64,000 nt of DNA from Chthoniobacterales bacterium (GCA_038237805.1 JBBRYI010000003.1:183594-247593), one strand, 5' to 3'. Positions 5,818 to 45,677 are shown, numbered from the stretch's first letter. Notes: generated by a model not told the origin, from the letters alone. Translations and numbers: made by a program.

Positions 5818-6648
5818 ATGTCCCACGAAGTCACTGAGCTCATCATCGAAGCCGGCCATACCGAGCGCAATTACTGGCGTGATCTATTCCGGTATCGCGA
5901 GCTTTTTTATTTTCTTGCCTGGCGCGACGTCCTCGTTCGCTACAAACAAACCGTCATCGGCGTTCTTTGGGCCGTCTTGCGTCCGCTGCTCACGATGGTT
6001 GTGTTTACGTTCGTCTTCAGCCGCATCGCGAAGTTACCTGCGGAAGGCGTGCCTTATCCGGTGATGGTTTTTGCCGCCATGCTTCCGTGGCAATTGTTCG
6101 CCACCTCACTCACGGAAGGCAGTGGCAGCCTTATCAATAATTCCAACCTCATCTCGAAAGTCTATTTTCCGCGTCTTATTGTTCCCGCAAGTTCCGTCAT
6201 CGTTTCCTTTGTCGATTTTGCCATCTCCATGGTGCTGCTCGGAATACTGATGGTCATCTATCGCGTTTGGCCCGGCTGGACGCTCCTGACGCTTCCAATC
6301 TTCACCGCTCTCGCGCTGCTCGCCTCCGCTGGCGCCGGTATCTGGCTCGCTGCGCTGAATGTGAAGTATCGCGATTTTCGCTACGTCGTGCCGTTCATCG
6401 TTCAGTTTGGTCTCTACATCTCACCCGTCGGTTTCAGCAGCTCCATTGTTCCTGCGAAATGGCGTCTGCTTTATTCGTTCAATCCGATGGTTGGCGTAAT
6501 TGATGGTTTCCGCTGGGGCATCTCCGGGGGTAACACCGCGTTTCCGACTCAAAGTCTCGAGATTTCGCTCATTACTACTGCCATCCTTCTCTTCACCGGC
6601 ATTTGGTATTTCCGTAAAACCGAGCGCACCTTCGCGGACGTCATCTGA
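5818..6648 (+). CDS. wzm: ABC-2 type polysaccharide/O-antigen export permease
   Basis: Contains RELFYFLAWRDVLVRYKQTVIGVLWAVLRPLL, typical of Wzm/KpsM/TagG, and about 6 TM segments. Start chosen at MSHEVTE (5818). Confidence 0.8.
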   Translation: MSHEVTELIIEAGHTERNYWRDLFRYRELFYFLAWRDVLVRYKQTVIGVLWAVLRPLLTMVVFTFVFSRIAKLPAEGVPYPVMVFAAMLPWQLFATSLTEGSGSLINNSNLISKVYFPRLIVPASSVIVSFVDFAISMVLLGILMVIYRVWPGWTLLTLPIFTALALLASAGAGIWLAALNVKYRDFRYVVPFIVQFGLYISPVGFSSSIVPAKWRLLYSFNPMVGVIDGFRWGISGGNTAFPTQSLEISLITTAILLFTGIWYFRKTERTFADVI

Positions 6649-6822
6649 TTAAAAGCTGAGATGTTAAACGGCTCAGCCGGCCGGTCACAGATTTCCGCTT
6701 TTCAGCTTTCAGCGTTTTCCGGGTCAGATTCCCAATCTTTTATCTTTTCAGTTTTCCGGGTTTTCCATATTGTCCCGATTCACAAGAAGCCATTCACCGG
6801 CCCTATGCCTTCATCATTCACC

Positions 6823-8820
6823 ATGAAAAATCCAACATTAACAATTCTGTTTGGTGCCGTTTGCATCTTCGCGAGTAAAGCAAACGCGGCATCAGTCATG
6901 ATTACTGGACAAACCGCGGGTCCGACGCCGTTCATTAGCGACCTTCAACTAAGCGCGAGTCCACCGGACTCGATCAAAAGTATAAAGTTTCAGATTGCTC
7001 CCAAGACGGGATCAGTCACACGCCCTCTGGCTGCAACCTACTCTAGCCAGTACCTGACGAAACGCGGTTACTACAATTCGCAGACGGGTGCAATTCTTTT
7101 GCCGGTGTTTGGTCTCTACGACAATTACGCCAACGCCGTTTTACTAACTTACGTGTTCACCGATAACTCGTCGCAGCAAGCGAGCGTCATGGTTACTACG
7201 CCCTTGTTTGCCGACCAATGCAGTTACAGCAATCCCACTGTTATACAAGCCAGGACGAATAGCACCACACTGAGCTACGATTACATTTTAACCAGGAACA
7301 GGTGTGGTAGCTTTTCGCCTGTTATTATTGATACTGATGGACGACTTCGCTGGGTCGGTACGGTAGGGTTCGCCGATTTGCCTGCAACGCTGTTCCAGAA
7401 CTCGATCTATATTGGCCACGGGCCAGTACTTTATCGCATGGAACTCGACGGCACATTTGCTGTCCTGCGAGATTACAGTAGCGGTGGGGTCATTAATTTT
7501 CACCACAACATCGATTTAGGTAAACGCGGGCTCATAGTAGATGTAGACACTCCCGCACAGGTTGAAGCTACGAACATGGAAATCGATGGTCTGGGCAATA
7601 TTCTAAAGACATGGAACCTGGCTAACATTATTACCGCTGCCATGACCGCTGGAGGCGATGACGCAACTCAGTTCGTCAAGCCCTCGCCCAATGACTGGTT
7701 TCACAACAACGCTACCACGTACAAAAAATCTGATGACTCATTGCTCGTTTCCAGCCGTGAAAATTTCGTTATCGCACTGGATTACACAAGCGGCGCCATT
7801 AAGTGGATTTTGGGTGACGCCACCAAGCAATGGTACCAGTTTCAGTCGTTAAGAAACTTTGCGCTTACACTTGATACCAATACGCTTCCTCCCATTGGCG
7901 AACATGCTTTATCAATCACGAAGGATGACAACCTGTTACTTTTTGATAACGGCAGGAATAGTATAAATAACACGCCCCCGGGGGACAATCGCACCTACAG
8001 CGCTCCTCGTAAGTATCAGATAAACACTCAATCAAAGGTGGCAACGGAACTCTGGAACTACCCGAATAACCAGGCTCTGTACAGCGATATTTGTTCCAGT
8101 ATCTATGAAGACAGTCCACTGAATTATTTAATCGATTACGCCCACATAGTTAACATCAGCCCACCCGCCCTGTTTGCGGAGATCCTCGGTCTGGATGCAT
8201 CAGGGAACAAGATTTTCGATTATCGATATCCCACCGCGAGTTGTAACACCGCATATAACTCTATCCCGGTTCATTTGGAACAAGTCATGTTTAAGACGAT
8301 CGTTCCGCCTACCGCAGTCTCTCGTAAATCTCATGGATCGGCCGGGACGTTCGAAGTCCCATTGCCGCTGAGTGGCACAGCGGGCGTTGAATGCCGTTCC
8401 GGTCATGCTGACGGCAGCTACCAGGTGGTAGTAACTTTCGCCATTCCAGTGACAATTACGTCTGCGACGGTGGTCCCAGGCAGTGGCGCCACGGGGACCG
8501 TTGTAGGTGCTCCTAGTGTTGCCGGGGCTGAAGTAACTGTGGACCTCACAAACGTCGGTAACGCCCAAACGCTAACGGTAAATTTAGTTGGAGTAAACGA
8601 TGGCTCGAATACGGAAAACTTTTCCGTACCGATGAGTGTGCTTGTTGGCGACACGACCGGTAATGGCTCCGTCAATTCAATTGACATAAACCAGGTAAAA
8701 TCGCAATCGGGGACCGCCGTGACAGCTGCGAACTTCCGGGAAGACGTAACCGCAAGCGGAGCGATTAATAGCTCGGATATAACTTTAACCAAATCGAAAA
8801 CTGGAAGTGGCGTTCCTTAG
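6823..8820 (+). CDS. Secreted aryl-sulfotransferase (ASST)-like beta-propeller protein with C-terminal dockerin-like repeats, paralog 1
   Basis: Signal peptide MKNPTLTILFGAVCIFASKANA. Contains FHHNID, DWFHNNATTYKKSDDSLLVSSRENFVIALDY..G.IKWILGD and GEHALSIT.DDNLLLFDNG, which resemble my recollection of the AssT family. The tail GDTTGNGSVNSIDINQVK / ASGAINSSDITLTK resembles dockerin type I repeats. Start trimmed from 6661 to 6823. Confidence 0.55.
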   Translation: MKNPTLTILFGAVCIFASKANAASVMITGQTAGPTPFISDLQLSASPPDSIKSIKFQIAPKTGSVTRPLAATYSSQYLTKRGYYNSQTGAILLPVFGLYDNYANAVLLTYVFTDNSSQQASVMVTTPLFADQCSYSNPTVIQARTNSTTLSYDYILTRNRCGSFSPVIIDTDGRLRWVGTVGFADLPATLFQNSIYIGHGPVLYRMELDGTFAVLRDYSSGGVINFHHNIDLGKRGLIVDVDTPAQVEATNMEIDGLGNILKTWNLANIITAAMTAGGDDATQFVKPSPNDWFHNNATTYKKSDDSLLVSSRENFVIALDYTSGAIKWILGDATKQWYQFQSLRNFALTLDTNTLPPIGEHALSITKDDNLLLFDNGRNSINNTPPGDNRTYSAPRKYQINTQSKVATELWNYPNNQALYSDICSSIYEDSPLNYLIDYAHIVNISPPALFAEILGLDASGNKIFDYRYPTASCNTAYNSIPVHLEQVMFKTIVPPTAVSRKSHGSAGTFEVPLPLSGTAGVECRSGHADGSYQVVVTFAIPVTITSATVVPGSGATGTVVGAPSVAGAEVTVDLTNVGNAQTLTVNLVGVNDGSNTENFSVPMSVLVGDTTGNGSVNSIDINQVKSQSGTAVTAANFREDVTASGAINSSDITLTKSKTGSGVP

Positions 8821-9035
8821 AAACAAGCGTCATTTTAAGAACCGCAGGGAAGCTGGACACGTAGCGGACAGGTTGAGATAGCCGGGATCTTCGAGCTTTG
8901 TCACGATGATGAAAACGGGGTAAGGCGAATCGAAACCTCAGAGATTTCATTTTCGCTTTTCAGCTTTCCACGTTTCCGCTTTTCATAAAATTTGATTTTC
9001 TCATTGGCGCCGATTTCGAATGCGGAGGTTTTACC

Positions 9036-9172
9036 GGAGCTGATATCGCTGGCGGCAAATCGCTCTTTCCGCTCAAAGTCTCGAGATCTCGCTCACTGCC
9101 AACGCGATCGTTCTCGTTACCGGCATTTGGTATTTTCGCAAAGCCGAGCGCACGTTCGCGGACGTGATCTGA
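9036..9172 (+). pseudogene. Relic of a wzm-like 3-prime end (about 45 codons, with indels and an in-frame TGA)
   Basis: Reading back from the stop at 9170-9172 gives ...QSLEISLTANAIVLVTGIWYFRKAERTFADVI*. The real Wzm C-terminus is QSLEISLITTAILLFTGIWYFRKTERTFADVI*. Upstream of QSLE the frame is broken and there is a TGA at 9041-9043. Confidence 0.7.
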
Positions 9173-9376
9173 TTAAAAGCCGAAATACTAAATGCGCAGC
9201 CGCGGCTGACAGGTCTTCGATTTTCAGAGTTTCCGGGTTTCAGATTTCTTATCTTTCCGGCCCTTCAGTTTTTCGTTTTTTAGACTTTCCAAACATAGCC
9301 ATCAGGGCCATAATCCGGCAGCTTACGCGACTCCCGGCGGCGAGCGAAGTCACATCAACTCCTACCACTTATTCCA

Positions 9377-11419
9377 ATGAAAAATGTAATAGCAGCGATT
9401 CTTTTTACCGCGACCTGTTTCCTGGCGGGGACAGTCAACGCCGGATCGGTTATGATTACTGGACAAACCGCGGGTCCGACGCCGTTCATTAGCGACCTTC
9501 AACTAAGCGCCAGTCCACCGAACTCGATCAAAAGTATAAAGTTTCAGATTGCTCCAAAGACGGGATCAGTCACACGACCTCTGGCTGCTACTTACACGAG
9601 CGAATATTTGAAGAGGCGGGGCTACTACAATTCGCAGACGGGTGCAATTCTTTTGCCGGTGTTTGGTCTCTACGACAATTACGCTAACGCCGTTTTACTA
9701 ACTTACGTGTTCACCGATAACTCGTCACAACAGGCCGGCGTTGTAGTTAGCACGTCTGCGTTTAACGATACATGCAGTTACAGCCATCCAACCGTGATAC
9801 AAGCCAGGACCAATAGCACCGCGCTGAGCTATGATTACATTCTGTTGAAGAATAAGTGCGGCAGCTTTTCGCCGATTATTATTGATAGCGACGGGTGGGT
9901 TCGTTGGGTTGGGGCGGCCGGGGTCACTGATTTTCCAGCCAGGCTGTACCAGAACTCGATCTATCTCGGCCACGGTCCACTGCTTTATCGCCTAGAGCTC
10001 GATGGGACCTACGCCATGTTGCGAGACTATAGCAGCGATGGAGTGGCTGATTTTCATCACAACATCGATTTGGGCAAACGCGGCCTCATCGTAGAAGTAG
10101 ACACTCCGGCGTACACTGAGTCTGTAAACATGGAAATAGATGGTTTGGGCAATATTCTAAAGACATGGAACCTGGCTGCCATCATTACTGCTGCAATGAC
10201 CGGCGCAGGCGATGATGCAAGCCAGTTCGTCAAGCCCGCTCCCAACGACTGGTTTCATAATAACGCGGTCACGTATAAAAAATCCGATGACTCACTGCTT
10301 GTATCCAGCCGTGAGAATTTCGTGATTGCTCTTGATTATGCGACCGGTGCTATCAAGTGGATTTTGGGTGACAATACCAAGCAATGGTACCAGTTCCAAT
10401 CGTTAAGGAACTTTGCGCTTACGCTCGATACTAATACGCTTCCGCCGATCGGCGAGCATGCTTTGTCGATCACGACAGATGACAACTTGTTACTGTTTGA
10501 TAACGGGAGAAGCAGTCTGAATCACACCCCGCCGGGGGCGGACCGCACCTATAGCGCTCCTCGCAAATATCAGATCAACACGCAATCGAAGGTGGCGACG
10601 GAGTTATGGAACTTCCCGAACGGTCAGGCTTTCTACAGCCCGTTCTGTTCAAGCATATATGAGGATGCCCCCTTAAATTACTTAGTCCTCTACTCTATTC
10701 TTACTAACCCAGCGCCACCGCCGCCGCAGTTTGCGGAGGTTCTGGGCTTAGAGGCATCTGGCGCTAAAGTGTTTGATTATCGCTACCCTAATATGGGTTG
10801 TGACGCCGCTTGGAATGGTCTGCCGATTCACCTCGAGCAGGTTATGTTTACCACGATCGTTCAACCTACCGCGGTCTCTCGCAAGGATCATGGATTGTCC
10901 GGAATATTCGACATTCCAATGCCCTTGACTGGCAACTCAGGCGTTGAATGTCGTTCCGGCGGTGCTGACGGCAGCTATCAGCTCGTAGTTACTTTCGCCA
11001 GTCCGGTGACTATTACGACCGCCACTGCAACGTCCGACAGCGGTGGAACAGCGTCCGTTGTAGGCACGCCTGTCGTAGCCGGTAATCAAGTGATTGTGAA
11101 CCTCACAAACGTCAGTAACGCGCAAACGCTGACGGTAAATTTAATTGGAGTAAACGATGGCTCGAACACGGAAAACTTTTCCGTGCCGATGAGTGTGCTT
11201 GTCGGTGACACGACCGGTAATGGCTCCGTCAATTCAAGTGACATAATCCAGGTAAAATCGCAATCGGGCGCCGCAGTGACAGCTGCCAACTTCCGGGAGG
11301 ACGTAACCGCAAACGGAGCGATTAATAGCTCGGATATAACTTTAACCAAATCTAAAACTGGAAGTGGCGTTCCTGCGAAACAAGCATCACTTAGGAATCG
11401 TAACCAAGCTAACAGGTGA
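9377..11419 (+). CDS. Secreted ASST-like beta-propeller protein with dockerin-like repeats, paralog 2
   Basis: Signal peptide MKNVIAAILFTATCFLAGTVNA. By eye it is about four-fifths identical to paralog 1 along its full length and carries the same motifs. It has a 13-aa longer C-terminus. Confidence 0.55.
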   Translation: MKNVIAAILFTATCFLAGTVNAGSVMITGQTAGPTPFISDLQLSASPPNSIKSIKFQIAPKTGSVTRPLAATYTSEYLKRRGYYNSQTGAILLPVFGLYDNYANAVLLTYVFTDNSSQQAGVVVSTSAFNDTCSYSHPTVIQARTNSTALSYDYILLKNKCGSFSPIIIDSDGWVRWVGAAGVTDFPARLYQNSIYLGHGPLLYRLELDGTYAMLRDYSSDGVADFHHNIDLGKRGLIVEVDTPAYTESVNMEIDGLGNILKTWNLAAIITAAMTGAGDDASQFVKPAPNDWFHNNAVTYKKSDDSLLVSSRENFVIALDYATGAIKWILGDNTKQWYQFQSLRNFALTLDTNTLPPIGEHALSITTDDNLLLFDNGRSSLNHTPPGADRTYSAPRKYQINTQSKVATELWNFPNGQAFYSPFCSSIYEDAPLNYLVLYSILTNPAPPPPQFAEVLGLEASGAKVFDYRYPNMGCDAAWNGLPIHLEQVMFTTIVQPTAVSRKDHGLSGIFDIPMPLTGNSGVECRSGGADGSYQLVVTFASPVTITTATATSDSGGTASVVGTPVVAGNQVIVNLTNVSNAQTLTVNLIGVNDGSNTENFSVPMSVLVGDTTGNGSVNSSDIIQVKSQSGAAVTAANFREDVTANGAINSSDITLTKSKTGSGVPAKQASLRNRNQANR

Positions 11420-11569
11420 CGGACAAGTTGAGACAGCCCGGTTAATCTCAAGCTCTGTCACGATAACGAAACGGCGTAGGCGAATCGAAAATCGCCGAGG
11501 TTTCATTTTCGTTTTTTAGCTTTCCGCGTTTCCGCTCTTCACGAAATCTGATTTTCTCGGAGGAGGAAA

Positions 11570-12319: not shown

Positions 12320-12382
12320 CACCGAAGCCTGCGTCATGAATTCACTCAGCAGGTTCGCGGGCGTAGAAACTATCATGGAGCC

Positions 12383-14218: not shown

Positions 14219-14239
14219 ACGCTTGCAACCGCTCAATCA

Positions 14240-17881: not shown

Positions 17882-17894
17882 AAACTCGACCTCG

Positions 17895-22722: not shown

Positions 22723-22745
22723 TTTTCGAAAAGGCATTCATTTGC

Positions 22746-31029: not shown

Positions 31030-31038
31030 ACGCTGGGT

Positions 31039-32780: not shown

Positions 32781-33512
32781 TTGAAAACTTTTGACATCCT
32801 AGGCACGCCGTTAAGGCAAACAAGCTATGAGGCTTTTACGAGCTATTGCCACGACCTCATCACCAAAGGCGGAACTTGGGCGGTGGATCTGACCAACACC
32901 CAAGTGGTCACGATGCGCCGGCACGATCCGCATTTCCGCGAGATTACGAGCCGGTTTGATTTTTTTCTTCCTGATGGGATGCCACTGATCTGGTGCTTGA
33001 ATGCTCGGGGCGCGCGACTTTCCGATCGCGTCTACGGACCAACCTTCATGCGCCACTGTATCAGCGCGAGCCCAGCTCCGTTTACGCATTACTTGTTAGG
33101 TGGTTCCCGCGATTGCCTGGAGAAATTGCGCGCCCGGCTCATGAAACACCAACCGCTATTGAAGATTGTGGGTTCACACCACGGTTATTTTCGCACCGAA
33201 GAGGAAGACGAAATTGTCGCAGAAATCAACCACCTCTCGCCGGATTTCATCTGGATCGGACTCGGAACGCCGAAGCAACAGGATTGGATCCATCGACGCA
33301 AGGGTGAGATAGAACGCGGAATTCTTTTGGCGGTCGGTTTTGCTTTTGATGTCAACGCTGGAAGCAAAAAGGACGCCCCGGACTGGATGCAGCGGTTGGG
33401 GCTTACGTGGTTATTCCGGATTATCCGCGAGCCGCGTCGCTTGTTGCGTCGCTACCTTAAATACAACACGCTTTTCCTTTATTACCTGGTTAGGGAAAAG
33501 TTACGGATGTAG
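32781..33512 (+). CDS. WecB/TagA/CpsF-family (GT26) glycosyltransferase
   Basis: Contains FLPDGMPLIW and IWIGLGTPKQQDWI motifs. TTG start. Confidence 0.85.
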   Translation: MKTFDILGTPLRQTSYEAFTSYCHDLITKGGTWAVDLTNTQVVTMRRHDPHFREITSRFDFFLPDGMPLIWCLNARGARLSDRVYGPTFMRHCISASPAPFTHYLLGGSRDCLEKLRARLMKHQPLLKIVGSHHGYFRTEEEDEIVAEINHLSPDFIWIGLGTPKQQDWIHRRKGEIERGILLAVGFAFDVNAGSKKDAPDWMQRLGLTWLFRIIREPRRLLRRYLKYNTLFLYYLVREKLRM

Positions 33513-33543
33513 AGGCGTGTGTCGGGCACCAGTTGGTTTGGTT

Positions 33544-33569
33544 CTGCCGCTGGTGACAGCGGCAGCTAC
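33544..33569. repeat. REP-like hairpin + CTAC (copy A, next to the displaced mutL end)
   Basis: The sequence ctgccgctg-gtga-cagcggcag-ctac forms a 9-bp perfect stem. It is duplicated at 34484-34509. Confidence 0.55.
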
Positions 33570-33589
33570 AACAGCAGCGACAAAGCGCG

Positions 33590-33697
33590 CTAGACTTTTC
33601 GCCCAAATTTTTTCTCCAATTCGCCTAACGAGATTTGGATCATGGTCGGACGGCCGTGCGGACAGCAGTAGGGCAGGTCGCAACTAAGGAGATCGCG
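33590..33697 (-). pseudogene. Displaced copy of the last 35 codons of mutL
   Basis: The minus strand reads RDLLSCDLPYCCPHGRPTMIQISLGELEKKFGRKV*. The genuine MutL C-terminus is HDLLRCDLPYCCPHGRPTMIQISLGELEKKFGRKV*. There is no MutL body upstream of it. Confidence 0.75.
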
Positions 33698-34226
33698 ACA
33701 CGTTCTCGCGATCTTTGCGTTCAGGCTCCTTTTTCTTTGGCGGCGCAAGATGTTCCAAATCGTCCAGGTCTTTGGCGCGGCTGGTCGCCCGTTTATTACG
33801 GCGCAGCGGACCAATCCCAATATAATACAGTCGAAGTGAACCGGAACGGGTTTTCAAGCGCACAGGGACACGGGAGTTCCAAGCGGAGCTAAAGGAAACG
33901 CCATCGATCCGGCTGTGAAGATCGATCCGGTTGGGAGGCCGACCGAATTGAATGATTACGCCAGGATCCAGCAGTTCGTTCGCCGTTTTTATTCCGGGGA
34001 CGTCATTGTCCCAAAACACTTCGAGCGCTTTGAAAAGGCGCGCGGCATTCCTGGGTCTACACTGGTAAAAGAAATCAATGTCCCCGGTCAGTCGCGGATA
34101 CCCGTGAAAGATGACGGCTTCGCCTCCGACAACGAGGTAACGAATCTTGAATCGGCTAAGGAGCCGGATAAACTCGACGACATCCGCCGAAAAAAACGCG
34201 GGCGCACTTATGACTTGCGGTGCCAT
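33684..34226 (-). CDS. Pol-beta-superfamily nucleotidyltransferase-fold protein (180 aa)
   Basis: VVGGEAVIFHGYPRLTGDIDFF fits the hG[GS]x9-13Dh[DE]h minimal NTase signature. I did not recognise the exact family. Confidence 0.55.
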   Translation of the reverse strand: MAPQVISAPAFFSADVVEFIRLLSRFKIRYLVVGGEAVIFHGYPRLTGDIDFFYQCRPRNAARLFKALEVFWDNDVPGIKTANELLDPGVIIQFGRPPNRIDLHSRIDGVSFSSAWNSRVPVRLKTRSGSLRLYYIGIGPLRRNKRATSRAKDLDDLEHLAPPKKKEPERKDRENVSRSP

Positions 34227-34378
34227 GCCCGAACGTCAGGCTGCGGCATCGGATAGGCGCGGCGTTTCAGGCTATGTGCGATCTGCACCCGCTGCGTCGG
34301 AGTCATCTTTCGATACTGGCCTAGCTCCCAGGCTTTTGCTTCCTGAGCGCTACGACTTTTGTGCGCAATCCTTTCCAT
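34208..34378 (-). CDS. Small ORF (56 aa) upstream of and overlapping the NTase gene
   Basis: MERIAHKSRSAQEAKAWELGQYRKMTPTQRVQIAHSLKRRAY... It overlaps the NTase start by 19 nt. I extracted it from the longer ORF 34208..34681, whose upstream part lies in mutL. Confidence 0.3.
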   Translation of the reverse strand: MERIAHKSRSAQEAKAWELGQYRKMTPTQRVQIAHSLKRRAYPMPQPDVRAWHRKS

Positions 34379-34483
34379 CGAGAGGTATCTTATCGCGTTT
34401 CGGCACTCAAGGCGAGGAAGAACAGTTGCGTGTTTCCTCACGCACAACTTGTAAAGGCGGGTGTGCCGCCCGCTTATTGAATT

Positions 34484-34509
34484 CTGCCGCTGACGACAGC
34501 GGCAGCTAC
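34484..34509. repeat. REP-like hairpin + CTAC (copy B, directly downstream of the mutL stop)
   Basis: The sequence is ctgccgctg-acga-cagcggcag-ctac. It may serve as the mutL terminator. Confidence 0.55.
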
Positions 34510-34512
34510 AGC

Positions 34513-36333
34513 TCACACTTTTCGTCCGAATTTTTTCTCCAATTCGCCTAACGAGATTTGAATCATTGTCGGACGGCCGTGCGGACAGCAGTAGGGCAAG
34601 TCGCAGCGGAGAAGATCGTGGATCAGTTTTTCGATTTCGAGATTGCGCAAGACGTCGTTTGCCTTCACGGCATGACGACAAACGGTTTTGGCGATCATGT
34701 CTTCGCCGAGACGCAGCGCCGAACTGCTATTGCTCGCGGTCTTCAGACCGTCGATGACTTCGCGCATGAAATGAATGGGATTCGATGTGTTCAAGAAAGT
34801 CGGGAGACTGTCGATCTTGAACGTGTTTGCGCCGAAAAATTCGATCCCGATTCCCATTTTTTGCAGCGTCGGAATGTTGCGATCGACCCATTCGGCATCG
34901 CGCGGCGCCAGATCGAAAGTGAGCGGAAGCAACAGGCGCTGCGAAGGAACACCCTGCTCTTCCATGCGATGACGAAGTTCCTCAAAAAGGATTCGCTCGT
35001 GTGCAGCGTGTTGATCGACCAGGACGAGCCCGTCCTCGTTCTCCATCAGAACGTAAAGTTTGTTGAGCACGCCAATGATCTGAAATTGTTGGGCGCGCGG
35101 CGGAGTCGGACCTGTGCCGTCATTCTCGCGTTGCACCATGCGCGCAGCCAAGCCCGGTTCTTCACGTTCAATCGGGAGCATCGGCATCGTCGGGAGCGTC
35201 GATTCAGGCTGGTGAAGCGCAGGCCCGGACGGAAACTCAGAGGTGGATACGAATGTAGAATTGGCGGCCGGTTCTGCATCGCCGGGATCAATGACACCAG
35301 TTGCGGCGGGAGCGTCGAATTGTTTCTGCCAGGTCTGTCTTCCCGCCTCCAATGTATTGCGAACTGTTTCCACGACTGCTTCACGCACGCCGGCCGGATC
35401 GCGGAAACGGACTTCGCGTTTCGCGGGATGCACGTTGACGTCAACAGCAGCGGGATCGAGCTCGAGAAAAAGAAAAGTTACTGGAAATTGTCCTCTCATC
35501 AGCGCCGTGTGATAGCCCTCGCGCAAAGCAGCGTTGAGCACCGGGCTTTCGACGGCGCGGCCATTTACAAATGTAATCTGTTGTGACCGGTTTTGTCGGC
35601 TCACGCCGGCCTGGCCGATAAATCCACGGAGCTTGAGCTTCGCATTCTCGTTAGGGGGTTGGATTTCAAGCAATCGATCGAGTAACTCAGCGCCATGCAA
35701 ATCGCGAATGCGATCGCGCAAAGAATTCGTGGCCGGAAGCTGAAAGATGACGCGCTCATCGCGCACAAAGGCGAAGGCGATTTCCGGCCGGCCTGTCGCT
35801 TGCAGGTGAAGTTGATGCTCGACGTTGCGACTCTCGGTGTTTTCCGAACGCAGGAATTTTCGACGCGCAGGAAGATTGTAGAACAGAGAACGCACCTCGA
35901 CCTGCGTGCCGGGCGCCTCTCCGCCTTCTCGCACGGTTTCAATCTTTCCGCCGGCAACGAGAATTTCGGCGCCTGCGACAGCGGAGTGTTCGCGAGTCGT
36001 TAGGCGAAAACGCGAAACGCTCGCAATGCTCGGGAGCGCCTCGCCGCGAAAGCCAAGCGTGCCAATTGCAGCGAGATCATTTGACGTTCGGATCTTGCTC
36101 GTCGCGTGCCGCTCCAACGACAGAAGCGCATCGTCGCGGTCCATGCCGCAACCGTCATCGATCACGCGAATGAGCGAAATGCCGCCGCGTTGAATCATGA
36201 CTTCGACGCTGCTTGCACCAGCGTCGATGCTGTTTTCGACAAGCTCCTTCACCACTGACGCCGGTCGCTCGACGACTTCTCCAGCCGCAACCTGGTTAGC
36301 GACGATCTCGGGAAGAAGTTGGATGCGGCTCAT
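34513..36333 (-). CDS. mutL: DNA mismatch repair protein MutL
   Basis: Contains MSRIQLLPEIVANQVAAGEVVERPASVVKELVENSIDAG (GHKL ATPase) and a C-terminal CPHGRPT motif. Confidence 0.95.
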   Translation of the reverse strand: MSRIQLLPEIVANQVAAGEVVERPASVVKELVENSIDAGASSVEVMIQRGGISLIRVIDDGCGMDRDDALLSLERHATSKIRTSNDLAAIGTLGFRGEALPSIASVSRFRLTTREHSAVAGAEILVAGGKIETVREGGEAPGTQVEVRSLFYNLPARRKFLRSENTESRNVEHQLHLQATGRPEIAFAFVRDERVIFQLPATNSLRDRIRDLHGAELLDRLLEIQPPNENAKLKLRGFIGQAGVSRQNRSQQITFVNGRAVESPVLNAALREGYHTALMRGQFPVTFLFLELDPAAVDVNVHPAKREVRFRDPAGVREAVVETVRNTLEAGRQTWQKQFDAPAATGVIDPGDAEPAANSTFVSTSEFPSGPALHQPESTLPTMPMLPIEREEPGLAARMVQRENDGTGPTPPRAQQFQIIGVLNKLYVLMENEDGLVLVDQHAAHERILFEELRHRMEEQGVPSQRLLLPLTFDLAPRDAEWVDRNIPTLQKMGIGIEFFGANTFKIDSLPTFLNTSNPIHFMREVIDGLKTASNSSSALRLGEDMIAKTVCRHAVKANDVLRNLEIEKLIHDLLRCDLPYCCPHGRPTMIQISLGELEKKFGRKV

Positions 36334-36830: not shown

Positions 36831-36857
36831 AACCGGCCGCAAGGCAACGGCGCTAAG

Positions 36858-39161: not shown

Positions 39162-39164
39162 GAA

Positions 39165-39680: not shown

Positions 39681-39736
39681 TGCGGAGAAGTTGCGAAGGT
39701 AAAACCACCAATGCGAAAGTCGAGGGACGTTTTCCT

Positions 39737-39820
39737 ATTCGTTTCTGTAGCGGCGGTCTCTGACCGTCGCATTTGTTTCTTCTCGATCGATTTCTTGCGA
39801 CGGTCATAGACCGCCGCTAC
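39737..39820. repeat. Large inverted repeat: 25-bp arms beginning with GTAG, 34-nt loop
   Basis: Arm 1 (39737-39761) is gtagcggcggtctctgaccgtcgca. Arm 2 (39796-39820) is tgcgacggtcatagaccgccgctac. There is one mismatch. It lies 10 nt downstream of the GT39 stop. Confidence 0.6.
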
Positions 39821-39829
39821 GAAGGAATA

Positions 39830-41305
39830 TCACGATCGCGTCAGAAAAATGTAACGCGGAGTTTCCTTATCGTTCTCGCCCCATGACCGCAGCTTCGACG
39901 GAATCGAGCCTTCAAGATCATGAAGCAACCGCGGCCGTTCCTCTTCCGGCGCAATCACCGCATCGATTGTTCCCGCATTCCAGCGCACGAGCGCTTCTTC
40001 CGGACTAACGAACCGCGGGCGCTCGAGATAAAGCAGAAGCCCTTCATCGTCACCGCCAATGACGTCGTATTGCCAGCCATGCCCATCTGCTTCCTTGCGC
40101 ACAGCGTGACCAAATCGAACGAGCGCCCCGCGGTCACGACGTAAACCGTCAACGACTTTGAGTGCCGCGTAACCGCCGCAAAGCAGAAAAGCAAAAACAA
40201 CGGCGATGGCCGACCATCGCATCACACGCGGCCGTAATTTTTCTTTCGATGCCACTCGCGCGAAGAGAGCGCCAAGCAACAAGCAAAAAGGAGGCACGAC
40301 GGGAAAGATTCGATCGACCCTTTTTGATGGGATGAGCGACATCAAAATCAATCCGCCGAGACTCCAGACTACGAGCCACAATATTTCCGGCGACGTACGC
40401 TGCCACCATTGCCTTAACCTAATTTTTTCTGCCGACCATTTCAGAACAACAAAAGCGATTCCGAGAATGCTCCACGGCGCAAACTTGTGGAGCAGATGCG
40501 GTAGATAAAAATAAATCGGTTGCGGGCGGTGGACCGTTTCGCCGAACCGGCCGAGGAATTCGCGCATCACAACTTCATGAAAAAAATGTGGCGCGAAAAC
40601 AATTCCGCCCATGACCCACAGAAAAAAAATCGCGAAGGCGCCGAGCCATGGCCACGAACCGCACCACGCGCTAGCTGCAGTCGCATGGTAACGGCGTCGC
40701 CATTCGAAAATCACGATCCCGGGCAGAAGAAATGCGCAAACGATCGGGCCCTTGATCAACATCGCGGCAGTGAGCAAGAGAAAGGCCCGCACCTGATCGT
40801 GCATTCCCCACGATTCGTTCTTGCGAATCTTTTCCCAGACCTGCCAGCCGAGCAGAAAAATGACGAGCGCCAACGGCATGTCGGTTCGAACGAGTGTCGC
40901 CAGTCGTAGCGAAAGGAGATTCAATCCAAACGCGCTCATTGCGATGAGTCCGGCAACATCCCCGTAGGCGCTTAGGGCAGCACGATAAAGGAACGCGAGT
41001 AGCGCGAGGGCAGCCAGAAATGACGGCAAATGCCACGCGACGCCCCAGGATTTTGTGCTCGCGAAAAGCGCCGCCGATACCCAACCGACAAGCGGCGGCT
41101 TCGTCGCGACTCTTTCGTTAGGCGTACGCTGATACAGCCAGTGACCTTCCTTCACCATTTCGAACGAAGTGAAGGCTTGCTTCGCCTGGTCGTAGTCGTC
41201 CAAATGCCACGGCAGATTGCCGATCGCGAAAAGCACGCTCGTTAGGCAAAGAAGAATCCAAAAGGTGCGCTTATTTTCGAGGAATTTTTCTGCTGAAGTT
41301 GTCAC
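39830..41305 (-). CDS. GT39/ArnT-like (PMT_2) membrane glycosyltransferase
   Basis: 491 aa polytopic protein. The N-terminal loop DDYDQAKQAFTSFEMVKEGHWL....KPPLVGW is typical of ArnT/PMT-like enzymes. Confidence 0.75.
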   Translation of the reverse strand: MTTSAEKFLENKRTFWILLCLTSVLFAIGNLPWHLDDYDQAKQAFTSFEMVKEGHWLYQRTPNERVATKPPLVGWVSAALFASTKSWGVAWHLPSFLAALALLAFLYRAALSAYGDVAGLIAMSAFGLNLLSLRLATLVRTDMPLALVIFLLGWQVWEKIRKNESWGMHDQVRAFLLLTAAMLIKGPIVCAFLLPGIVIFEWRRRYHATAASAWCGSWPWLGAFAIFFLWVMGGIVFAPHFFHEVVMREFLGRFGETVHRPQPIYFYLPHLLHKFAPWSILGIAFVVLKWSAEKIRLRQWWQRTSPEILWLVVWSLGGLILMSLIPSKRVDRIFPVVPPFCLLLGALFARVASKEKLRPRVMRWSAIAVVFAFLLCGGYAALKVVDGLRRDRGALVRFGHAVRKEADGHGWQYDVIGGDDEGLLLYLERPRFVSPEEALVRWNAGTIDAVIAPEEERPRLLHDLEGSIPSKLRSWGENDKETPRYIFLTRS

Positions 41306-41457
41306 ATGTCGTCGGAGGGATGTGTTTCCGCACGGCCTCTCAATTTATTTGAAACGGAGGATGTCATGCGCCCCCCCGATGCCGCCCCACAAGGCGAATT
41401 TTGCAATTGACATTCGCCCCATCAGGCTGTGCGCTGCTCCATACGGCATTATAACAT

Positions 41458-42054
41458 ATGAAACGTCTAACAATTCTCCTCCTGAGTTTGCTGCTCGCTC
41501 TAAGAGCATCAGCCATCACCTTCACCTTCGCCTTCGATAACGATACAACTCCTGGCATACAGGTACCGGTCGGCATCGGATCGTTTACTTTTGCGAATGA
41601 TCCAGGAAACGGCACTTTCGCATTTAATAGTCTGGGCGCATTCTCGATGATGTACTCTTTCATCAACGCCTCCGCCTTTACCCAAGCTGATATCACTTCC
41701 GGTCTCAGCAAGGTGCTGGTCGTGCTTTCGACCAGCGGAACGACGCGGCGCCTGCAATTCAGCGACACCGGCGCAGGCGGCGGCGGAAACAGTGCAGGTT
41801 CGCTCGATCTCGACAACGGCACTGGAGACCTGAGCTTCGAGCCTTCGTATTTTGGGGGCAACCTGGACTTGTATTTCATCAATGGTTCTAACAAAACCGG
41901 GTTCTTCGGCAATTATTTGGCGACCACGACAGCAGGAACGGCTGTGCCGGAGGGAGGGTCCACTCAAATGATGCTGCTCCTCCCCGTTGTTGGCATACTC
42001 GCGTTGCATTCTCTCCGGCGGTGTTCGTTGCCGGCAAGGATTCTTCGCTCTTAA
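41458..42054 (+). CDS. Secreted protein with a PEP-CTERM-like sorting tail (VPEGGS variant)
   Basis: Has a signal peptide. The C-terminus is AVPEGGSTQMMLLLPVVGILALHSLRR, that is, motif + TM + basic cluster. Confidence 0.65.
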   Translation: MKRLTILLLSLLLALRASAITFTFAFDNDTTPGIQVPVGIGSFTFANDPGNGTFAFNSLGAFSMMYSFINASAFTQADITSGLSKVLVVLSTSGTTRRLQFSDTGAGGGGNSAGSLDLDNGTGDLSFEPSYFGGNLDLYFINGSNKTGFFGNYLATTTAGTAVPEGGSTQMMLLLPVVGILALHSLRRCSLPARILRS

Positions 42055-42066
42055 GCCTGACCGCAA

Positions 42067-42693
42067 TCAATCGCACCACAGAATCGCGCGCACCGGGGCA
42101 GCATCGCCGCCGGCGATTTTTATTGGAAGCGCAGCAAACTGATATCGACCCTCGTCAACTTTACTCAGGTCGAGCGATTCCACGATAGCGATACCCGCCT
42201 CGGCGAGCGCATGGTGGTTAGGCAAATCTTTCGAATCGATCGCATCGACCGAGGGGACATCGACGCCGAGTAACTTCACTCCCCTCTCCTGCAACCACCT
42301 CGGCAGCTCGCGAGAAATTGTCGGAATTTCTTTCGGAAAAATTCTCGTGTCGGTCCATGCGCCGGTTCTCAAAAGGAGACGCGGTGAATCACCGAGCGCG
42401 CTCTCCCAACGCTCGAGGTGCGACATCTCGATGCTCGAAGAATTCGTAACATCCGTCACGATCGCTGGACCGAAAAACGCACTGAGCTCAGCGCGCTCGA
42501 TCGTTTCGCCGTTCGGATCGAAATGAAAAAGTGCATCCGCGTGTGATCCGTTATGCACGCCCATTTCGACTGCTCCGACATTTACAGCCGCACCATCTGC
42601 GATTTTCCATTTCAATTCATAATGAAAGGGCGTATCGCCCGGCCACGGCGCCAGGTCATTTGATAATGCTCTCGAGATATCGACGATCTTCAT
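42067..42693 (-). CDS. kynB: Kynurenine formamidase / cyclase-family protein
   Basis: Contains MKIVDISR...WPGDTPF and VHNGSHADALFHF (a variant of HxGTHxDxPxH). Start trimmed to 42693. Confidence 0.8.
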   Translation of the reverse strand: MKIVDISRALSNDLAPWPGDTPFHYELKWKIADGAAVNVGAVEMGVHNGSHADALFHFDPNGETIERAELSAFFGPAIVTDVTNSSSIEMSHLERWESALGDSPRLLLRTGAWTDTRIFPKEIPTISRELPRWLQERGVKLLGVDVPSVDAIDSKDLPNHHALAEAGIAIVESLDLSKVDEGRYQFAALPIKIAGGDAAPVRAILWCD

Positions 42694-42727
42694 GTGGCGC
42701 GTGCTTCCAGCTTGCGGTCCTATAGAT

Positions 42728-42755
42728 AGGCGCTCGCCGCGACGAGCGCCTCTAC
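42728..42755. repeat. REP-like hairpin + CTAC
   Basis: The sequence is aggcgctcg-ccgcga-cgagcgcct-ctac. It sits in the kynB/aldehyde dehydrogenase divergent intergenic region. Confidence 0.5.
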
Positions 42756-42852
42756 AATTTTTTGGCGAGCGCAGCCGAGACATCTCTCATCCATTCCTTA
42801 CCCTGCGCAGTCTTATTGAGCCGCGTCCGTTCAATGCTTAGACTCTCCTGTT

Positions 42853-44310
42853 GTGAACACCGAACCGATCCAGATCAAGAATTTCATCGGGGGCGATTTT
42901 GTCGGACCGGCCAGCGGCAAATATCTCGACAACATCGAGCCGGCGACCGGTAAGGCGTATTCGCAAGTAGCAGATAGCGACTTGCGCGATGTCGAACTCG
43001 CCGTTGCCGCCGCGGACAAGGCATTTCCTGCTTGGTCGCGCACATCGGGGGCCGATCGTTCGCGCCTTCTCCTGCGTATCGCCGATTTGATTGAGCGCGA
43101 TCTGGAAAAATTCGCGCGCGCCGAATCGATCGACACGGGCAAGCCGCTTTCGCTCGCGCGCACACTCGAAATTCCACGAGCCGCTAGCAATTTCCGCTTT
43201 TTCGCGACGGCAATCCTTCACACGGAAACCAAAGCGCACGTCACCGATAACGTTGCCTTCAATTACACATTGCGCCAGCCGCGCGGCGTGGTGGGTCTGA
43301 TTTCACCGTGGAATTTGCCGCTTTATTTATTGAGTTGGAAAATCGCGCCCGCCATCGCCGTTGGTAACACAGCGATCGCTAAACCAAGCGAGCTGACGCC
43401 GATGACGGCGTATCTGCTCTGCGAAATTTGTCGCGAGGCCGGTTTACCTGACGGCGTGCTCAACGTCGTGCACGGCACCGGACCGAACGTCGGCGCGCCC
43501 ATTACCGAGCATCCGAAGATCGACACGATCTCGTTTACAGGCGGCACGGTCACCGGTCGCAAAGTCGCCGAAGCCGGCGCATCGCTCTTTAAAAAAATCT
43601 CGCTCGAGCTTGGCGGCAAAAATCCGAACATCATTTTTACCGATGCCGATCTTAACGCCGCGATCGCCGGCAGCGTGCGATCTTCATTCGCGAATCAGGG
43701 TCAGGTTTGCCTCTGTGGTTCCCGGATATTTGTTGAGCGACCGGGATATGAAGAATTCGTCAGCCATTTCATCGCGGCAACGTCGCAGCTGAAAATCGGC
43801 GATCCGCTCGATGAGAAAACCGATCAGGGCGCGATCGTTTCGCAAATGCAGCTCGACAAAGTGAAGTTCTACGTAGACCTCGCGCAGAAAGAGGGTGGCA
43901 AGATTGCGCTCGGCGGCTCGGCGCCCGAGCCGCCTAACGAACGATGTCGCGACGGTTATTTTTTCCCGCCGACAGTGATTACGGATTTACCCGTCTCATG
44001 TCGCACCAATCGCGAAGAAATTTTCGGACCCGTCGTCACCATTACACCGTTCGATAGCGAAGAAGAAGTGATCGGCTACGCCAACGATGTTGACTACGGA
44101 CTTTCTTCGAGCATCTGGACGCAAAACCTAAATCGCGCCCATCGCCTCGCCGAAGAGATTCACACCGGAACCGTTTGGATAAACTGCTGGCTCGTACGCG
44201 ACCTGCGCGTTCCTTTCGGCGGCATGAAGCAAAGCGGCGTCGGGCGCGAAGGCGGCGAAGAAGCGCTGCGCTTTTTCACCGAACCAAAAAACGTCTGCAT
44301 TGCGAAATGA
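42853..44310 (+). CDS. NAD-dependent aldehyde dehydrogenase (2-aminomuconate/2-hydroxymuconate semialdehyde dehydrogenase-like)
   Basis: Contains FTGGTVTGRKV, ELGGKNP (catalytic Glu) and QGQVCLCGSR (catalytic Cys). The substrate assignment is inferred only from the kynurenine-pathway neighbours. Confidence 0.85.
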   Translation: MNTEPIQIKNFIGGDFVGPASGKYLDNIEPATGKAYSQVADSDLRDVELAVAAADKAFPAWSRTSGADRSRLLLRIADLIERDLEKFARAESIDTGKPLSLARTLEIPRAASNFRFFATAILHTETKAHVTDNVAFNYTLRQPRGVVGLISPWNLPLYLLSWKIAPAIAVGNTAIAKPSELTPMTAYLLCEICREAGLPDGVLNVVHGTGPNVGAPITEHPKIDTISFTGGTVTGRKVAEAGASLFKKISLELGGKNPNIIFTDADLNAAIAGSVRSSFANQGQVCLCGSRIFVERPGYEEFVSHFIAATSQLKIGDPLDEKTDQGAIVSQMQLDKVKFYVDLAQKEGGKIALGGSAPEPPNERCRDGYFFPPTVITDLPVSCRTNREEIFGPVVTITPFDSEEEVIGYANDVDYGLSSSIWTQNLNRAHRLAEEIHTGTVWINCWLVRDLRVPFGGMKQSGVGREGGEEALRFFTEPKNVCIAK

Positions 44311-44456
44311 AAGCGCGTCTTAAAGGCAGAATAGGGTGAACTGATTTCTGCCAGCGAGCCCCAACCTCCGCGCCGCTTGTTTTGCGTCCAACCCGATGAG
44401 ACGATGGCAGCCTAATGCCTGGACCAAGCAGATTCGAGTCTCGATAAACTCAACTG

Positions 44457-45587
44457 ATGACGAGCAATCTCGATAAACTGGCAGCGCTCATTCGGCGGGA
44501 GCGTGATGCCTTGCTAGCCGGTTGGCGCGAACAAGTAAAGCAACTCCCGTCCGCACAACATCTCGACACTCCAGCGCTCAACGATCACATTCCGAATCTT
44601 TTGGAGGAATTGGCCACCGCGCTCGAATTACAATCGGGCCAGACAATACCTGAGGCGCTCGCGGAAAATAGCCCACCGGTGCATGGATTGGAACGTCTGA
44701 AAGAGGCTTTCGATATTGAAGAAGTCGTCGCCGAGTACAACATCCTACGCGGCTGCATTCACGACCTTGCCGAAAAGAACGGCTTGAGTCTGCACGGCGA
44801 ACCTTTCCATATTATGAATCGAGTCCTCGACCAGGCGATTGGCCTGGCTGTGCAAACGTATTCCACTCAGCAAGCGCTCGAAGTGCAACGTCGCCGGGAA
44901 GAATATCTTGCTTTTGTCGCGCACGATCTCCGAACTCCTTTGAATGCCATTTCTTTAGCGACAAGACTTCTGGAACTGATATTCAGGGAGCGAAGCGCGC
45001 GAGCCGAGGCTGCTCAGATGTTAAAAAGCCTGGGCCGCAACGTGCAGCATCTTCAGACGCTGGTTGGGAAGATCATCGAGGAAAACTCTAATTTGCGCAC
45101 CGAAACCGGCGTGAAACTCGAACGGCGCGACTTTGACTTGTGGCCGCTGGTCGAGGCTCTTATCCACGATCTCCGGCCGGTGGCAGGTACCGGTAGTACT
45201 CAGCTTGTTAACAAGGTGCCCCATAATTTGGTCGTTTACGCGGATGCAAGTCTGTTGAAACGGGTCTTTCAGAACTTAATCGCCAACGCAATCAAGTTTA
45301 CGCCACGAGGACAGGTTCTCATCCGTGCGCGTGAACTCGACAGCGAAGGCGCGGTCGAATGCTCCATTACCGACAATGGCGCGGGAATCGCCGAGGACCG
45401 TCTCGAAAACGTCTTCGATGAGTTAGAGACTGATTCTCAGAATGAAGGTGGTTTAGGTCTCGGTCTCGCCATCGTAAAGACATTTATCGAGGCTCACGGC
45501 GGCAAGGTAAGTGTCGAAAGCAAACAGGGTCTCGGCTCGACCTTCCAATTTACGCTGCCCGGTAAGCCGGTTCTAACTGGCAATTGA
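44457..45587 (+). CDS. Soluble sensor histidine kinase (orphan)
   Basis: H-box FVAHDLRTPLNAI, N-box QNLIANAIKFT, DNGAGI, GLGLGLAIV. No TM segment is present and no response regulator lies in the window. Confidence 0.85.
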   Translation: MTSNLDKLAALIRRERDALLAGWREQVKQLPSAQHLDTPALNDHIPNLLEELATALELQSGQTIPEALAENSPPVHGLERLKEAFDIEEVVAEYNILRGCIHDLAEKNGLSLHGEPFHIMNRVLDQAIGLAVQTYSTQQALEVQRRREEYLAFVAHDLRTPLNAISLATRLLELIFRERSARAEAAQMLKSLGRNVQHLQTLVGKIIEENSNLRTETGVKLERRDFDLWPLVEALIHDLRPVAGTGSTQLVNKVPHNLVVYADASLLKRVFQNLIANAIKFTPRGQVLIRARELDSEGAVECSITDNGAGIAEDRLENVFDELETDSQNEGGLGLGLAIVKTFIEAHGGKVSVESKQGLGSTFQFTLPGKPVLTGN

Positions 45588-45612
45588 TCCAGAGAAACGT
45601 TTCATTGCGCCT

Positions 45613-45677
45613 GCGAAGGCGGCGAAGAAGCGCTGCGCTTTTTCACCGAACCAAAAAACGTCTGCATCGCCAAGTAA
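45613..45677 (+). pseudogene. Displaced copy of the last 20 codons of the aldehyde dehydrogenase gene
   Basis: 55 nt are identical to 44246-44300. The last 3 codons then differ only synonymously (atcgccaagtaa vs attgcgaaatga; both read I-A-K-stop). Confidence 0.7.

Follow-up and report, generated by a model that had tools for sequence, protein, structure and literature searches.

Gene-end relics, that is, displaced copies of the end of a gene which lie beyond a stretch of other DNA (the cargo), the gene itself keeping its intact end, are a real and recurrent feature of G000, a metagenome-assembled genome (MAG) of a Chthoniobacterales bacterium (3.36 Mb in 28 contigs, 55% GC). Three of them are found in the stretch of 64,000 nucleotides analysed here (C3:183594-247593, the window), behind a wzm-type permease gene, mutL and an aldehyde dehydrogenase gene (aldh). 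With a confidence only just past the halfway mark, we regard the loci as footprints of homology-anchored capture of DNA from relatives, in which one homologous crossover in a conserved gene would have been combined with one illegitimate joint. An earlier interpretation of the DNA (the sequence-only reading) had noted three direct repeats, all of which lie where it had placed them (82% identity at wzm, 91% at mutL and 93% at aldh), and had proposed a repeated mechanism of gene gain at gene ends in this lineage. This proposal is borne out by further cases in the genome (an ABC-F ATPase gene with two relics, an RskA anti-sigma gene and a PPK2 gene), by other cargo in sister species and by empty sites.

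The frequency of gene-end relics was determined by searching the last and first 150 nt of the 2,449 genes predicted to encode 150 aa or more against the genome, and matches were counted only if they lay outside long genes and at most 6 kb away. The 3'-end queries yielded eight matches downstream and in the same orientation, at seven loci, versus one match upstream in the same orientation and none in inverted orientation. Judged by these control geometries (8 vs 1 and 0), downstream direct relics exceed chance, as the sequence-only reading had anticipated for a genome-wide scan. The seven loci are those of wzm, mutL, aldh, the ABC-F gene, the RskA gene, the PPK2 gene and a locus on contig C18; the last is probably a paralogue array, which leaves six solid loci. 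Across the loci, the repeats are 37-253 nt long and the inserts measure 0.2-4 kb. Three of the approximately seven loci sit within 40 kb (window positions 6500-45700), and this clustering suggests a regional recombination hot zone; the description as three cases in 64 kb is thus correct locally, but not as a genome density, which is about seven loci in 3.36 Mb. The same part of the window is syntenic with positions 27-66 kb of contig C14 of the relative G003. Several other pairs were rejected as relics: C3:282414/284453 is a REP-type palindrome with 35 copies, and C18:29063/32951/35576, C19:8717/9804, C4:260402/264506, C5:90596/93699, C1:136538/137928 and C6:107767/109927 represent paralogous genes or shared C-terminal domains.

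Gene identities were assigned by Pfam profile searches of open reading frames (ORFs). The relatives used for comparison have G codes and carry the public-record names Verrucomicrobiae, Chthoniobacteraceae or Limisphaerales; L031 is a public MAG, L057 is a soil contig, and other L codes denote loci. The public run that matches G000 best is a sediment metagenome.

At mutL, the intact gene (34513..36333, minus strand, Pfam MutL_C and DNA_mis_repair) ends with a TGA codon at 34513-34515, and the relic, which comprises the last 34 codons and a TAG stop codon (33590-33592), occupies 33590..33695 on the same strand. The repeat (34517-34618 versus 33594-33695, minus strand) spans 102 nt at 91% identity with a spacing of 923, and over its 31 codons the copies show six synonymous and zero non-synonymous differences. 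The cargo is a toxin-antitoxin-like pair, assigned by Pfam and homologues (33684..34381, minus strand), of a 57-aa ORF (34208-34381) and a 180-aa DUF6036-like nucleotidyltransferase (NTase) gene (33684-34226; Pfam DUF6036 E = 1e-4, a weak match below the cut-off); its length of 0.82 kb falls outside the 1-2.5 kb which the sequence-only reading had given for all cargo. Six nucleotides of microhomology (CGATCT) are present at the joint of cargo and relic. The same REP-type hairpin, tgtagctgccgctgtcgtcagcggcagaa, trails both copies on the minus strand, 2 nt past the stop codon of mutL (34482..34510) and 19 nt past that of the relic (33542..33570); it has 52 copies in the genome, and dispersed copies are also present in relatives. 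The resident downstream neighbour is a convergent WecG/TagA glycosyltransferase gene (32781..33512, plus strand, Pfam Glyco_tran_WecG E = 6e-54).

At aldh, all features lie on the plus strand. The intact gene (42853..44310, Pfam Aldedh E = 1e-171) is followed by an orphan histidine kinase (HK) gene (376 aa; 44457..45587, Pfam HisKA, HATPase_c and RsbRD_N) as cargo, by the relic (45613..45680), which contains the last 21 codons and a TAA stop codon, and by the resident downstream neighbour, a BNR/Asp-box propeller gene (45742..46902). The two copies (44246-44313 and 45613-45680; 68 nt, 93% identity, spacing 1367) are distinguished by three synonymous differences and a swapped stop codon, and microhomology at the joint of cargo and relic is confined to 1-2 nt.

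Taken over all loci, the relics are 4-20% apart from the intact ends, the differences being almost exclusively synonymous. When eight intact/relic pairs were counted by the Nei-Gojobori method, this gave 86 synonymous (Sd) and 31 non-synonymous (Nd) differences at 230 synonymous (S) and 787 non-synonymous (N) sites, and thus a ratio of the non-synonymous to the synonymous proportion (pN/pS) of 0.105 (binomial p = 2e-31 against neutrality). Single pairs had values of 0 to 0.15, for example 0.03 for mutL (Sd 8, Nd 1, counted over 33 codons and thus past the repeat boundary), and less clean values were obtained for the wzm relic (0.21) and the second ABC-F relic (0.25). The relics have kept a stop codon, often swapped from TGA to TAA or TAG, and at the protein level the displaced ends agree with the intact ends of their anchors (MutL, Aldedh, ABC-F, RskA and PPK2) in the conserved residues. 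Of the states that orthologues do not share, about half belong to each copy (at ABC-F, 14 are found only in the intact end and 10 only in the relic). The near-synonymous divergence and the kept stop codon argue that two functional alleles have been joined, and not that an in-place duplicate is decaying: both copies have thus been working gene ends for most of their separate history, and they are regarded as alleles from different lineages (xenologous). In most cases the similarity of the copies stops at the stop codon, as would be the case if the two intergenic regions had no common origin or had diverged beyond alignment.

These values bear directly on the alternative that the end of a gene was duplicated in place together with the DNA downstream of it, and that turnover of the cargo followed, gene conversion maintaining the likeness of the relic to the intact end, with no foreign allele involved. 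An in-place duplicate of which one copy is neutral should exhibit a pN/pS of about 0.5 or more, far above the pooled value, and the stop codons of the relics have been swapped yet kept; moreover, the number of unique states in the intact end equals or exceeds that in the relic. The cargo is duplicated only at wzm, and not at mutL, aldh, RskA or PPK2, it is missing from sister species with intact empty sites, and the relic lengths differ among species. Nevertheless, the aldh relic in three sister species could be one old event, and the distribution of differences in the aldh pair of G000, with an identical first 55 nt and all four differences in the last 13 nt, would suit a conversion tract. 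As a general explanation, in-place duplication is therefore judged improbable, but at the wzm locus the exact tandem layout is found, with both units kept and with indels in the relic.

At this locus, the wzm-type ABC-2 permease gene (5782..6648, plus strand, Pfam ABC2_membrane E = 1.5e-18) has an intact 3' end and is followed on the same strand by a gene for an arylsulfate sulfotransferase (ASST)-like/dockerin protein of 719 aa (6661..8820, Pfam Arylsulfotrans E = 2.4e-43), by the wzm relic (9061..9192, repeat D4, 82% identical and with indels) and by a second ASST-like/dockerin gene (9377..11419, 680 aa, identified by Pfam and repeats D1, D2 and D6). The repeat (6537-6668 versus 9061-9192) spans 132 nt with a spacing of 2524, and the relic differs from the intact end by mismatches with a phase of 10/6/15 and by four gap blocks. 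Repeats D1, D2, D4 and D6 together make up two units of about 2.55 kb at approximately 78% identity, each of which runs from a wzm end through an ASST/dockerin gene into non-coding DNA; therefore, the cargo itself is duplicated, the two ASST genes being units 1 and 2 of a tandem pair. The wzm case, which the sequence-only reading had grouped with the other two, resembles a tandem duplication in which the gene end and ASST were copied together, and its origin may be another one than that of the other loci. A second ASST/dockerin tandem pair, which also speaks for in-place duplication, is encoded at C11:81006-85181, so that ASST/dockerin genes form two separate tandem pairs at 70-78% identity, and in relatives a convergent ASST-like gene with 64% identity comes after wzm instead. 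The two tandem pairs and the different wzm neighbour in relatives therefore indicate that the ASST family is expanding and rearranging in G000.

Outside the window, two loci show that relics can accumulate beside a single gene. The full-length ABC-F gene is followed by a fresh and by a decayed relic, the latter being the one with the raised pN/pS, an internal stop codon and an inserted repeat; it looks, like the wzm relic, older or differently formed. Relic-like copies at the ABC-F end are present in G000, G002 and G003. The second locus (L055, C5:95944-99917) is a mirror image: upstream of gene X, a Zn-metallopeptidase-like gene, two relics (A and B) of its first ~72 codons are found, each preceding a ParE-family toxin-antitoxin cassette. 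The islet is of defence type and also contains an extra antitoxin-like ORF and a gene for an XcyI-like restriction nuclease, which lies beside the array and not between the repeats. The process is therefore not specific for 3' ends, as the sequence-only reading had it, and either end of a gene can serve as anchor. Relics A and B end at the same codon (~72-76) and share ~65 nt more past the gene homology, from which it follows that they have one common junction. A palindrome, ATCGTAAGC-N-GCTTACGAT, which has just 11 copies in G000 (C2:198302, C5:97158, C5:98055, four at C14:7402-7867, C14:61499, C14:63265, C14:64692 and C3:254528), is present at three junctions, namely 38 nt past the ABC-F stop codon and just beyond relics A and B. 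Most of the copies that are not at junctions adjoin other local direct repeats and small ORFs, and the palindrome could be an operator, a small REP family or a recombination site.

The comparison with relatives, which the sequence-only reading had seen as a way to polarise the insertions, revealed empty sites for both mutL and aldh. In G003 and G002, which belong to the same genus, the WecG/TagA gene directly follows mutL, and in G006, G022, G010 and G013 the BNR gene starts 110-350 nt past aldh. Other lineages, G022 and L031, have homologues of the NTase cassette with 72% identity (at the DNA level in the former and at the protein level in the latter) directly behind mutL, and no relic is present there; this gene order could be donor-like. 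In sister species, the aldh end is occupied by other cargo, namely a HigB/HigA pair with a 180-nt relic at 94% identity in G002 and a PIN-like pair with a relic of ~100 nt at 92% identity in G004. The soil contig L057 has the order aldh-HK-relic, with a relic of ~125 nt and an aldh gene only 78% identical to that of G000, so that the relic lengths at this one gene are 68 (G000), ~100 (G004), ~125 (L057) and 180 nt (G002). The HK cargo was also found on public-run contigs of three other samples, and an HK homologue adjoins aldh in just one of 80 metagenome loci (L057). In other relatives, the spacer between aldh and the BNR gene contains SnoaL, Calx-beta or unknown genes, and none of its larger occupants in G003, G015, G021, G001 and G011 has a recombinase domain. 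The ends of aldh and of the ABC-F gene are insertion hot spots common to sister species, with differing cargo, which speaks for independent hits at the same site.

G011 belongs to another genus, and its aldh locus is divided between two contigs, C14:97500-99921 (L141) and C7:1-1720 (L027). The former contains aldh, a gene for a 179-aa membrane protein and a 38-nt piece of the region upstream of the BNR gene; the latter starts with another 3' end of aldh (86.5% identical across 312 nt), behind which come the gene of a different histidine kinase and the BNR gene. The split represents either two co-assembled strains or a further relic locus that was broken by its repeat.

The genome being a MAG, the relics might have been generated by the joining of alleles of two co-existing strains during assembly, and the split locus of G011 with its alleles at 86.5% as well as the breaks of Logan unitigs inside each repeat would be in line with this. 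Such an artefact is, however, scarcely credible, because reads and large assembly k-mers are longer than the repeats (55-102 nt of high identity), because unitig depths agree between cargo and flanks (33.7 vs 32.4/36.2 and 28.9 vs 33.1/31.7), and because the same architecture is present in the independent assemblies G002, G003, G004 and L057.

Enzymes that could have moved the cargo were sought in the whole genome by six-frame hidden Markov model searches for tyrosine, Y1/RAYT, serine and rve families. None of these was found in the 64-kb window (other transposase families were not searched), and for these families the statement of the sequence-only reading that no integrase, transposase or RAYT gene is visible there is upheld. 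PF00589 matches are missing from the window and from all cargo, and no recombinase domain was detected in any insert or alternative occupant by Pfam scans of the cargo ORFs, nor did the genome-wide searches place one at a relic locus. No serine recombinase is encoded anywhere in G000, and the only rve-type transposase signal (C6:112307-112593) is a broken fragment with an internal stop codon; as far as the families searched are concerned, classical mobile elements are very scarce in this genome. Outside the window, G000 has genes for XerC and XerD, for an integron integrase and two integrases of phage type, and for a single RAYT; the competence gene comEC is also present in the genome. The integron integrase gene (C17:282-1352, TIGR02249, 456 bits versus a cut-off of 265) sits at the start of its contig, and 3' of it a 59-nt repeat is found in three copies spaced 247-270 nt (C17:1600-2250). 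The single RAYT gene (C1:322599-322814, NF047646, 96.5 bits) could explain the GTAG+hairpin REP family present in the window. The window also contains, at 57195-57855, five copies of a 147-nt period with 64-73% identity inside a minus-strand gene (57119-58261), which probably encodes a repeat-domain protein.

The sequence-only reading had considered as its first explanation that a recombinase acting in trans integrates small elements carrying a surrogate gene end. No support for this was found, although an integron integrase and a RAYT do exist in the genome, and we regard it as very doubtful that the integron integrase, XerC/XerD or RAYT inserted small cassettes at secondary sites beside gene ends. 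These enzymes are encoded, tightly packed toxin-antitoxin pairs are typical of integron cargo, REP hairpins trail both mutL copies, and the rare palindrome occurs at three junctions. However, insertion by an integron or by Xer makes no target duplications of 37-250 nt, the repeat length varies at a single gene (68, ~100 and 180 nt), no core is common to the junctions, and no attC-like AAC...GTT structure was seen in the cargo (manual reading only). In addition, 3' and 5' ends of unrelated genes are both used, and the pattern of divergence indicates that a homologous gene end travelled with the cargo. The conserved junction motif which might have been expected at cargo boundaries is not there: no k-mer of nine or more is shared by the junctions apart from an A-run.

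The second explanation of the sequence-only reading, one-sided homologous capture of foreign DNA, is the best fit, and it is preferred here rather than established. It accords with the variable relic length at one gene, the lack of a common junction motif and the use of both gene ends as anchors, and also with the relic arrays, a cargo composition near that of the genome and the donor-like mutL-NTase orders in relatives; xenologous relics and an uptake-like 11-mer agree with it as well. A piece of a relative's chromosome would enter the cell, carrying a conserved gene end and the accessory cassette that adjoins it in the donor, and natural transformation would be the most likely route. On one side, the piece would recombine within the conserved gene by ordinary RecA-type homologous recombination; the other side, which has no homologue, would be attached by an illegitimate joint that falls within the resident gene end, between a few dozen and a few hundred bases deep. 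The gene would thus be completed by the end that came in, the cassette would come after it, and the resident end would be stranded past the cassette. Only events that keep the conserved gene whole would survive, addictive cargo such as toxin-antitoxin pairs would aid the persistence of the insert, and repeated events would stack relics into arrays, as at the ABC-F gene and gene X. The analysis shows the architecture with its excess over the control geometries, the empty sites, the changes of cargo and relic length at one gene between sister species, the coding-type divergence of the copies, the lack of recombinase genes in the inserts and the family-restricted word; which copy came in, the illegitimate nature of one joint, entry by transformation and the involvement of RecA are all inferred.

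Natural transformation is a plausible entry route, given ComEC and an uptake-like word. The 9-mer TCGTTAGGC has 1,297 copies in 3.36 Mb, whereas ~13 per strand would be expected at random, an excess of ~50-fold; its copies are balanced between the strands (654/643) and show no local polarity, and the word is two-fold enriched between genes. In the window it occurs at 5566, 33623, 34546, 35997 and 16 more places. The duplicated mutL end contains one copy, and others are found on either side of the RskA cargo. The extended 11-mer, ACTCGTTAGGC, has 350-460 copies in every one of the genus's five near-complete genomes, 194 in G005, which is 61% complete, and 1-321 in other genera of the family; in genomes from other families of the order it is missing from 14 of 15, and the remaining one (G028) has six copies. 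The word thus behaves like a DNA uptake sequence (DUS) that is restricted to the family, and the literature that was searched had nothing relevant on uptake sequences in Verrucomicrobia. The cargo has a GC content of 0.49-0.58, compared with 0.547 for the genome, and an ordinary density of uptake words, values which would fit related donors.

It should be noted that several observations weigh against capture of this kind. No donor tract or breakpoint could be recognized, since the sliding identity of G000 aldh versus nine relatives and of the ABC-F gene versus four shows no step; the resident and the incoming copy are not distinguishable, their unique states being about evenly split; and the supposed illegitimate joints are weak in microhomology (6 nt at mutL, 1-2 nt at aldh). 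In three cases, the last cargo ORF stops 0-10 nt from the relic, and such tight ends look more like those of cassettes than like those of random fragments, unless they were trimmed by selection and deletion. The two 5' relics of gene X have the same inner boundary and the rare palindrome, the order aldh-HK-relic recurs in L057 despite an aldh identity of 78%, and the differences in the G000 aldh pair are confined to its last 13 nt, the first 55 nt being identical; these are signs of a reusable element end or of gene conversion. The source population shows no presence/absence polymorphism at the level of contigs and unitigs, as the unitig depth of the cargo is about that of the flanks and no skip joints occur. 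Finally, natural transformation is deduced from sequence features. The points that do not fit, namely the tight ends, the shared junction, the identical 55 nt, the missing donor tract and a microhomology that is clear at one joint only, leave room for re-insertion of a Campbell type or for some gene conversion.

In the former case, which we hold to be unlikely, the loci would be recombinase-less mobile cassettes: 'repeat + cargo' would loop out as a circle and re-enter by a single Campbell-type crossover at the same gene end. The final structure would be the same as after one-sided capture, but the repeat length and the junction of cargo and relic would be inherited from the donor. The same cargo at the same gene and with a relic in two distant lineages (G000 and L057), the linkage of the NTase cassette to mutL in three lineages, the common junction of relics A and B and the tight cargo boundaries are all in favour of this model, and a comparable life cycle of restriction-modification (RM) systems has been proposed by Furuta et al. 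2010 (PMC2853133). However, three relic lengths with three cargoes at aldh would need independent births, 68 nt of homology are a poor RecA substrate, and the NTase cassette occurs in G022 and L031 without any repeat. In addition, no skip, back (circle-type) or excision joints were found when Logan contigs and unitigs of the source run were searched at 95% likeness, a result at the level of contigs, which drop rare forms.

A further view is offered tentatively and has a low probability in our judgement. A soil/sediment family of Verrucomicrobiota would exchange small addictive or accessory cassettes without an element-encoded enzyme. The conserved housekeeping gene end would travel with the cassette as a portable attachment site read by RecA; the cassette would loop out between the repeats, be taken up by means of the family-specific uptake sequence ACTCGTTAGGC and be inserted into a new host at the same gene, and arrays like those of integrons would grow, entry by entry, with no integrase at work. 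At some junctions, the end of the cassette might be marked by the palindrome ATCGTAAGC-N-GCTTACGAT.

Most accounts of bacterial gene gain rest on recombinase-bearing elements. G000 is poor in these, as far as the searched families go, and has nonetheless acquired genes of the toxin-antitoxin, signalling and defence-like kinds, at approximately seven conserved gene ends. Relics thus offer a signature of recombination-only gene capture for which genomes can be scanned (a direct repeat of a gene end, divergence of the coding type and a kept stop codon), and they mark capture hot spots. Together with the 11-mer, they turn natural transformation in uncultured Verrucomicrobiota into a testable idea and suggest a way to delimit an 'exchange community'.

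Among known cases, the closest are 'insertion with long target duplication' and the displacement of rhs and type VI secretion system (T6SS) gene ends. The former (Nobusato et al. 2000; Furuta, Abe & Kobayashi 2010, PMC2853133) is described, in the latter paper, for RM systems which lie between repeats of more than 30 bp and of variable length, without mobility genes and with a single repeat copy in the comparison genome; the examples are mostly from naturally competent species, the repeats can overlap the 3' end of the neighbouring gene, and the proposed RM life cycle consists of insertion with a long repeat, amplification and release. The loci described here are alike in that small units (inserts below 20 kb) lie between direct repeats of more than 30 bp and variable length, that the insert is missing in relatives with similar flanks and a single repeat copy (mutL and aldh), and that no mobility gene is present in or beside the insert. 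They differ in cargo, the RM genes being replaced by an NTase pair, HK, HigBA, a PIN-like pair, ParE pairs, secreted proteins and unknowns, and in that the same conserved ends are struck repeatedly in sister species and relics stack into arrays. The repeats listed in the tables of PMC2853133 are near-identical, whereas those of G000 are 4-20% apart, almost only synonymously. A codon-level comparison of the repeat copies, given here, was not met with in the parts of Furuta 2010 (PMC2853133) consulted, nor was the point that one of the two copies is imported, for which the relics add evidence. Insertion with long target duplication is thus widened past restriction-modification systems.

Homology-facilitated illegitimate recombination (de Vries & Wackernagel 2002; Prudhomme et al. 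2002; Meier & Wackernagel 2003, as cited in PMC5361080 and PMC3240628) shares with the proposed one-sided capture a homologous anchor on one side, a non-homologous joint and the lack of an element enzyme, and it is expected in transformable bacteria; its illegitimate joint would lie at a microhomology of 3-10 nt. Unlike the present case, it is defined by experiment and usually deletes or replaces recipient DNA; the joint upstream of the anchor end that would give a duplication is postulated here from the sequence, and microhomology is clear at one junction only (mutL). Kirchberger et al. 2017 (PMC5361080) invoke the same process for the sequential displacement of T6SS effector-immunity modules and extend the idea to orphan rhs ends, and a related displacement of C-terminal regions is treated for rhs and contact-dependent inhibition (CDI) genes by Jackson et al. 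2009 (PMC2935791). In these systems, a new gene end recombines together with linked genes into the conserved part and pushes the old end downstream, giving arrays of orphan ends, and arrays beside a full-length gene are found here at the ABC-F gene and gene X. There, however, the displaced ends are variable toxin domains and the linked genes encode their immunity partners, whereas the anchors in G000 are conserved housekeeping ends with unrelated cargo, and a 5' version occurs here.

Tyrosine-recombinase islands that target tRNA genes or gene ends carry a surrogate 3' end of the target gene, so that direct gene-end repeats flank the insert and the gene stays intact, as in G000; the inserts here are, however, without an integrase and without a fixed core or repeat length. 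Integron cassettes are likewise small, tightly packed and often toxin-antitoxin pairs, but intI is located on another contig (C17:282-1352), and no attC was seen at the cargo ends, which were inspected only by eye. The minimal mobile elements of Neisseria (Saunders & Snyder 2002) reportedly place alternative small cargo between the same conserved genes, and in this lineage, which bears a DUS, transformation together with homology of the flanks serves for their exchange; they are swapped by two homologous crossovers, however, and leave no duplicated gene end. From insertion with long target duplication and the displacement of T6SS and rhs ends, with which they share the layout and the likely mechanism, the loci in G000 differ in four ways: in their cargo, in the conserved housekeeping anchors, in the repeated use of these anchors across the genus and in the codon-level evidence for two alleles.

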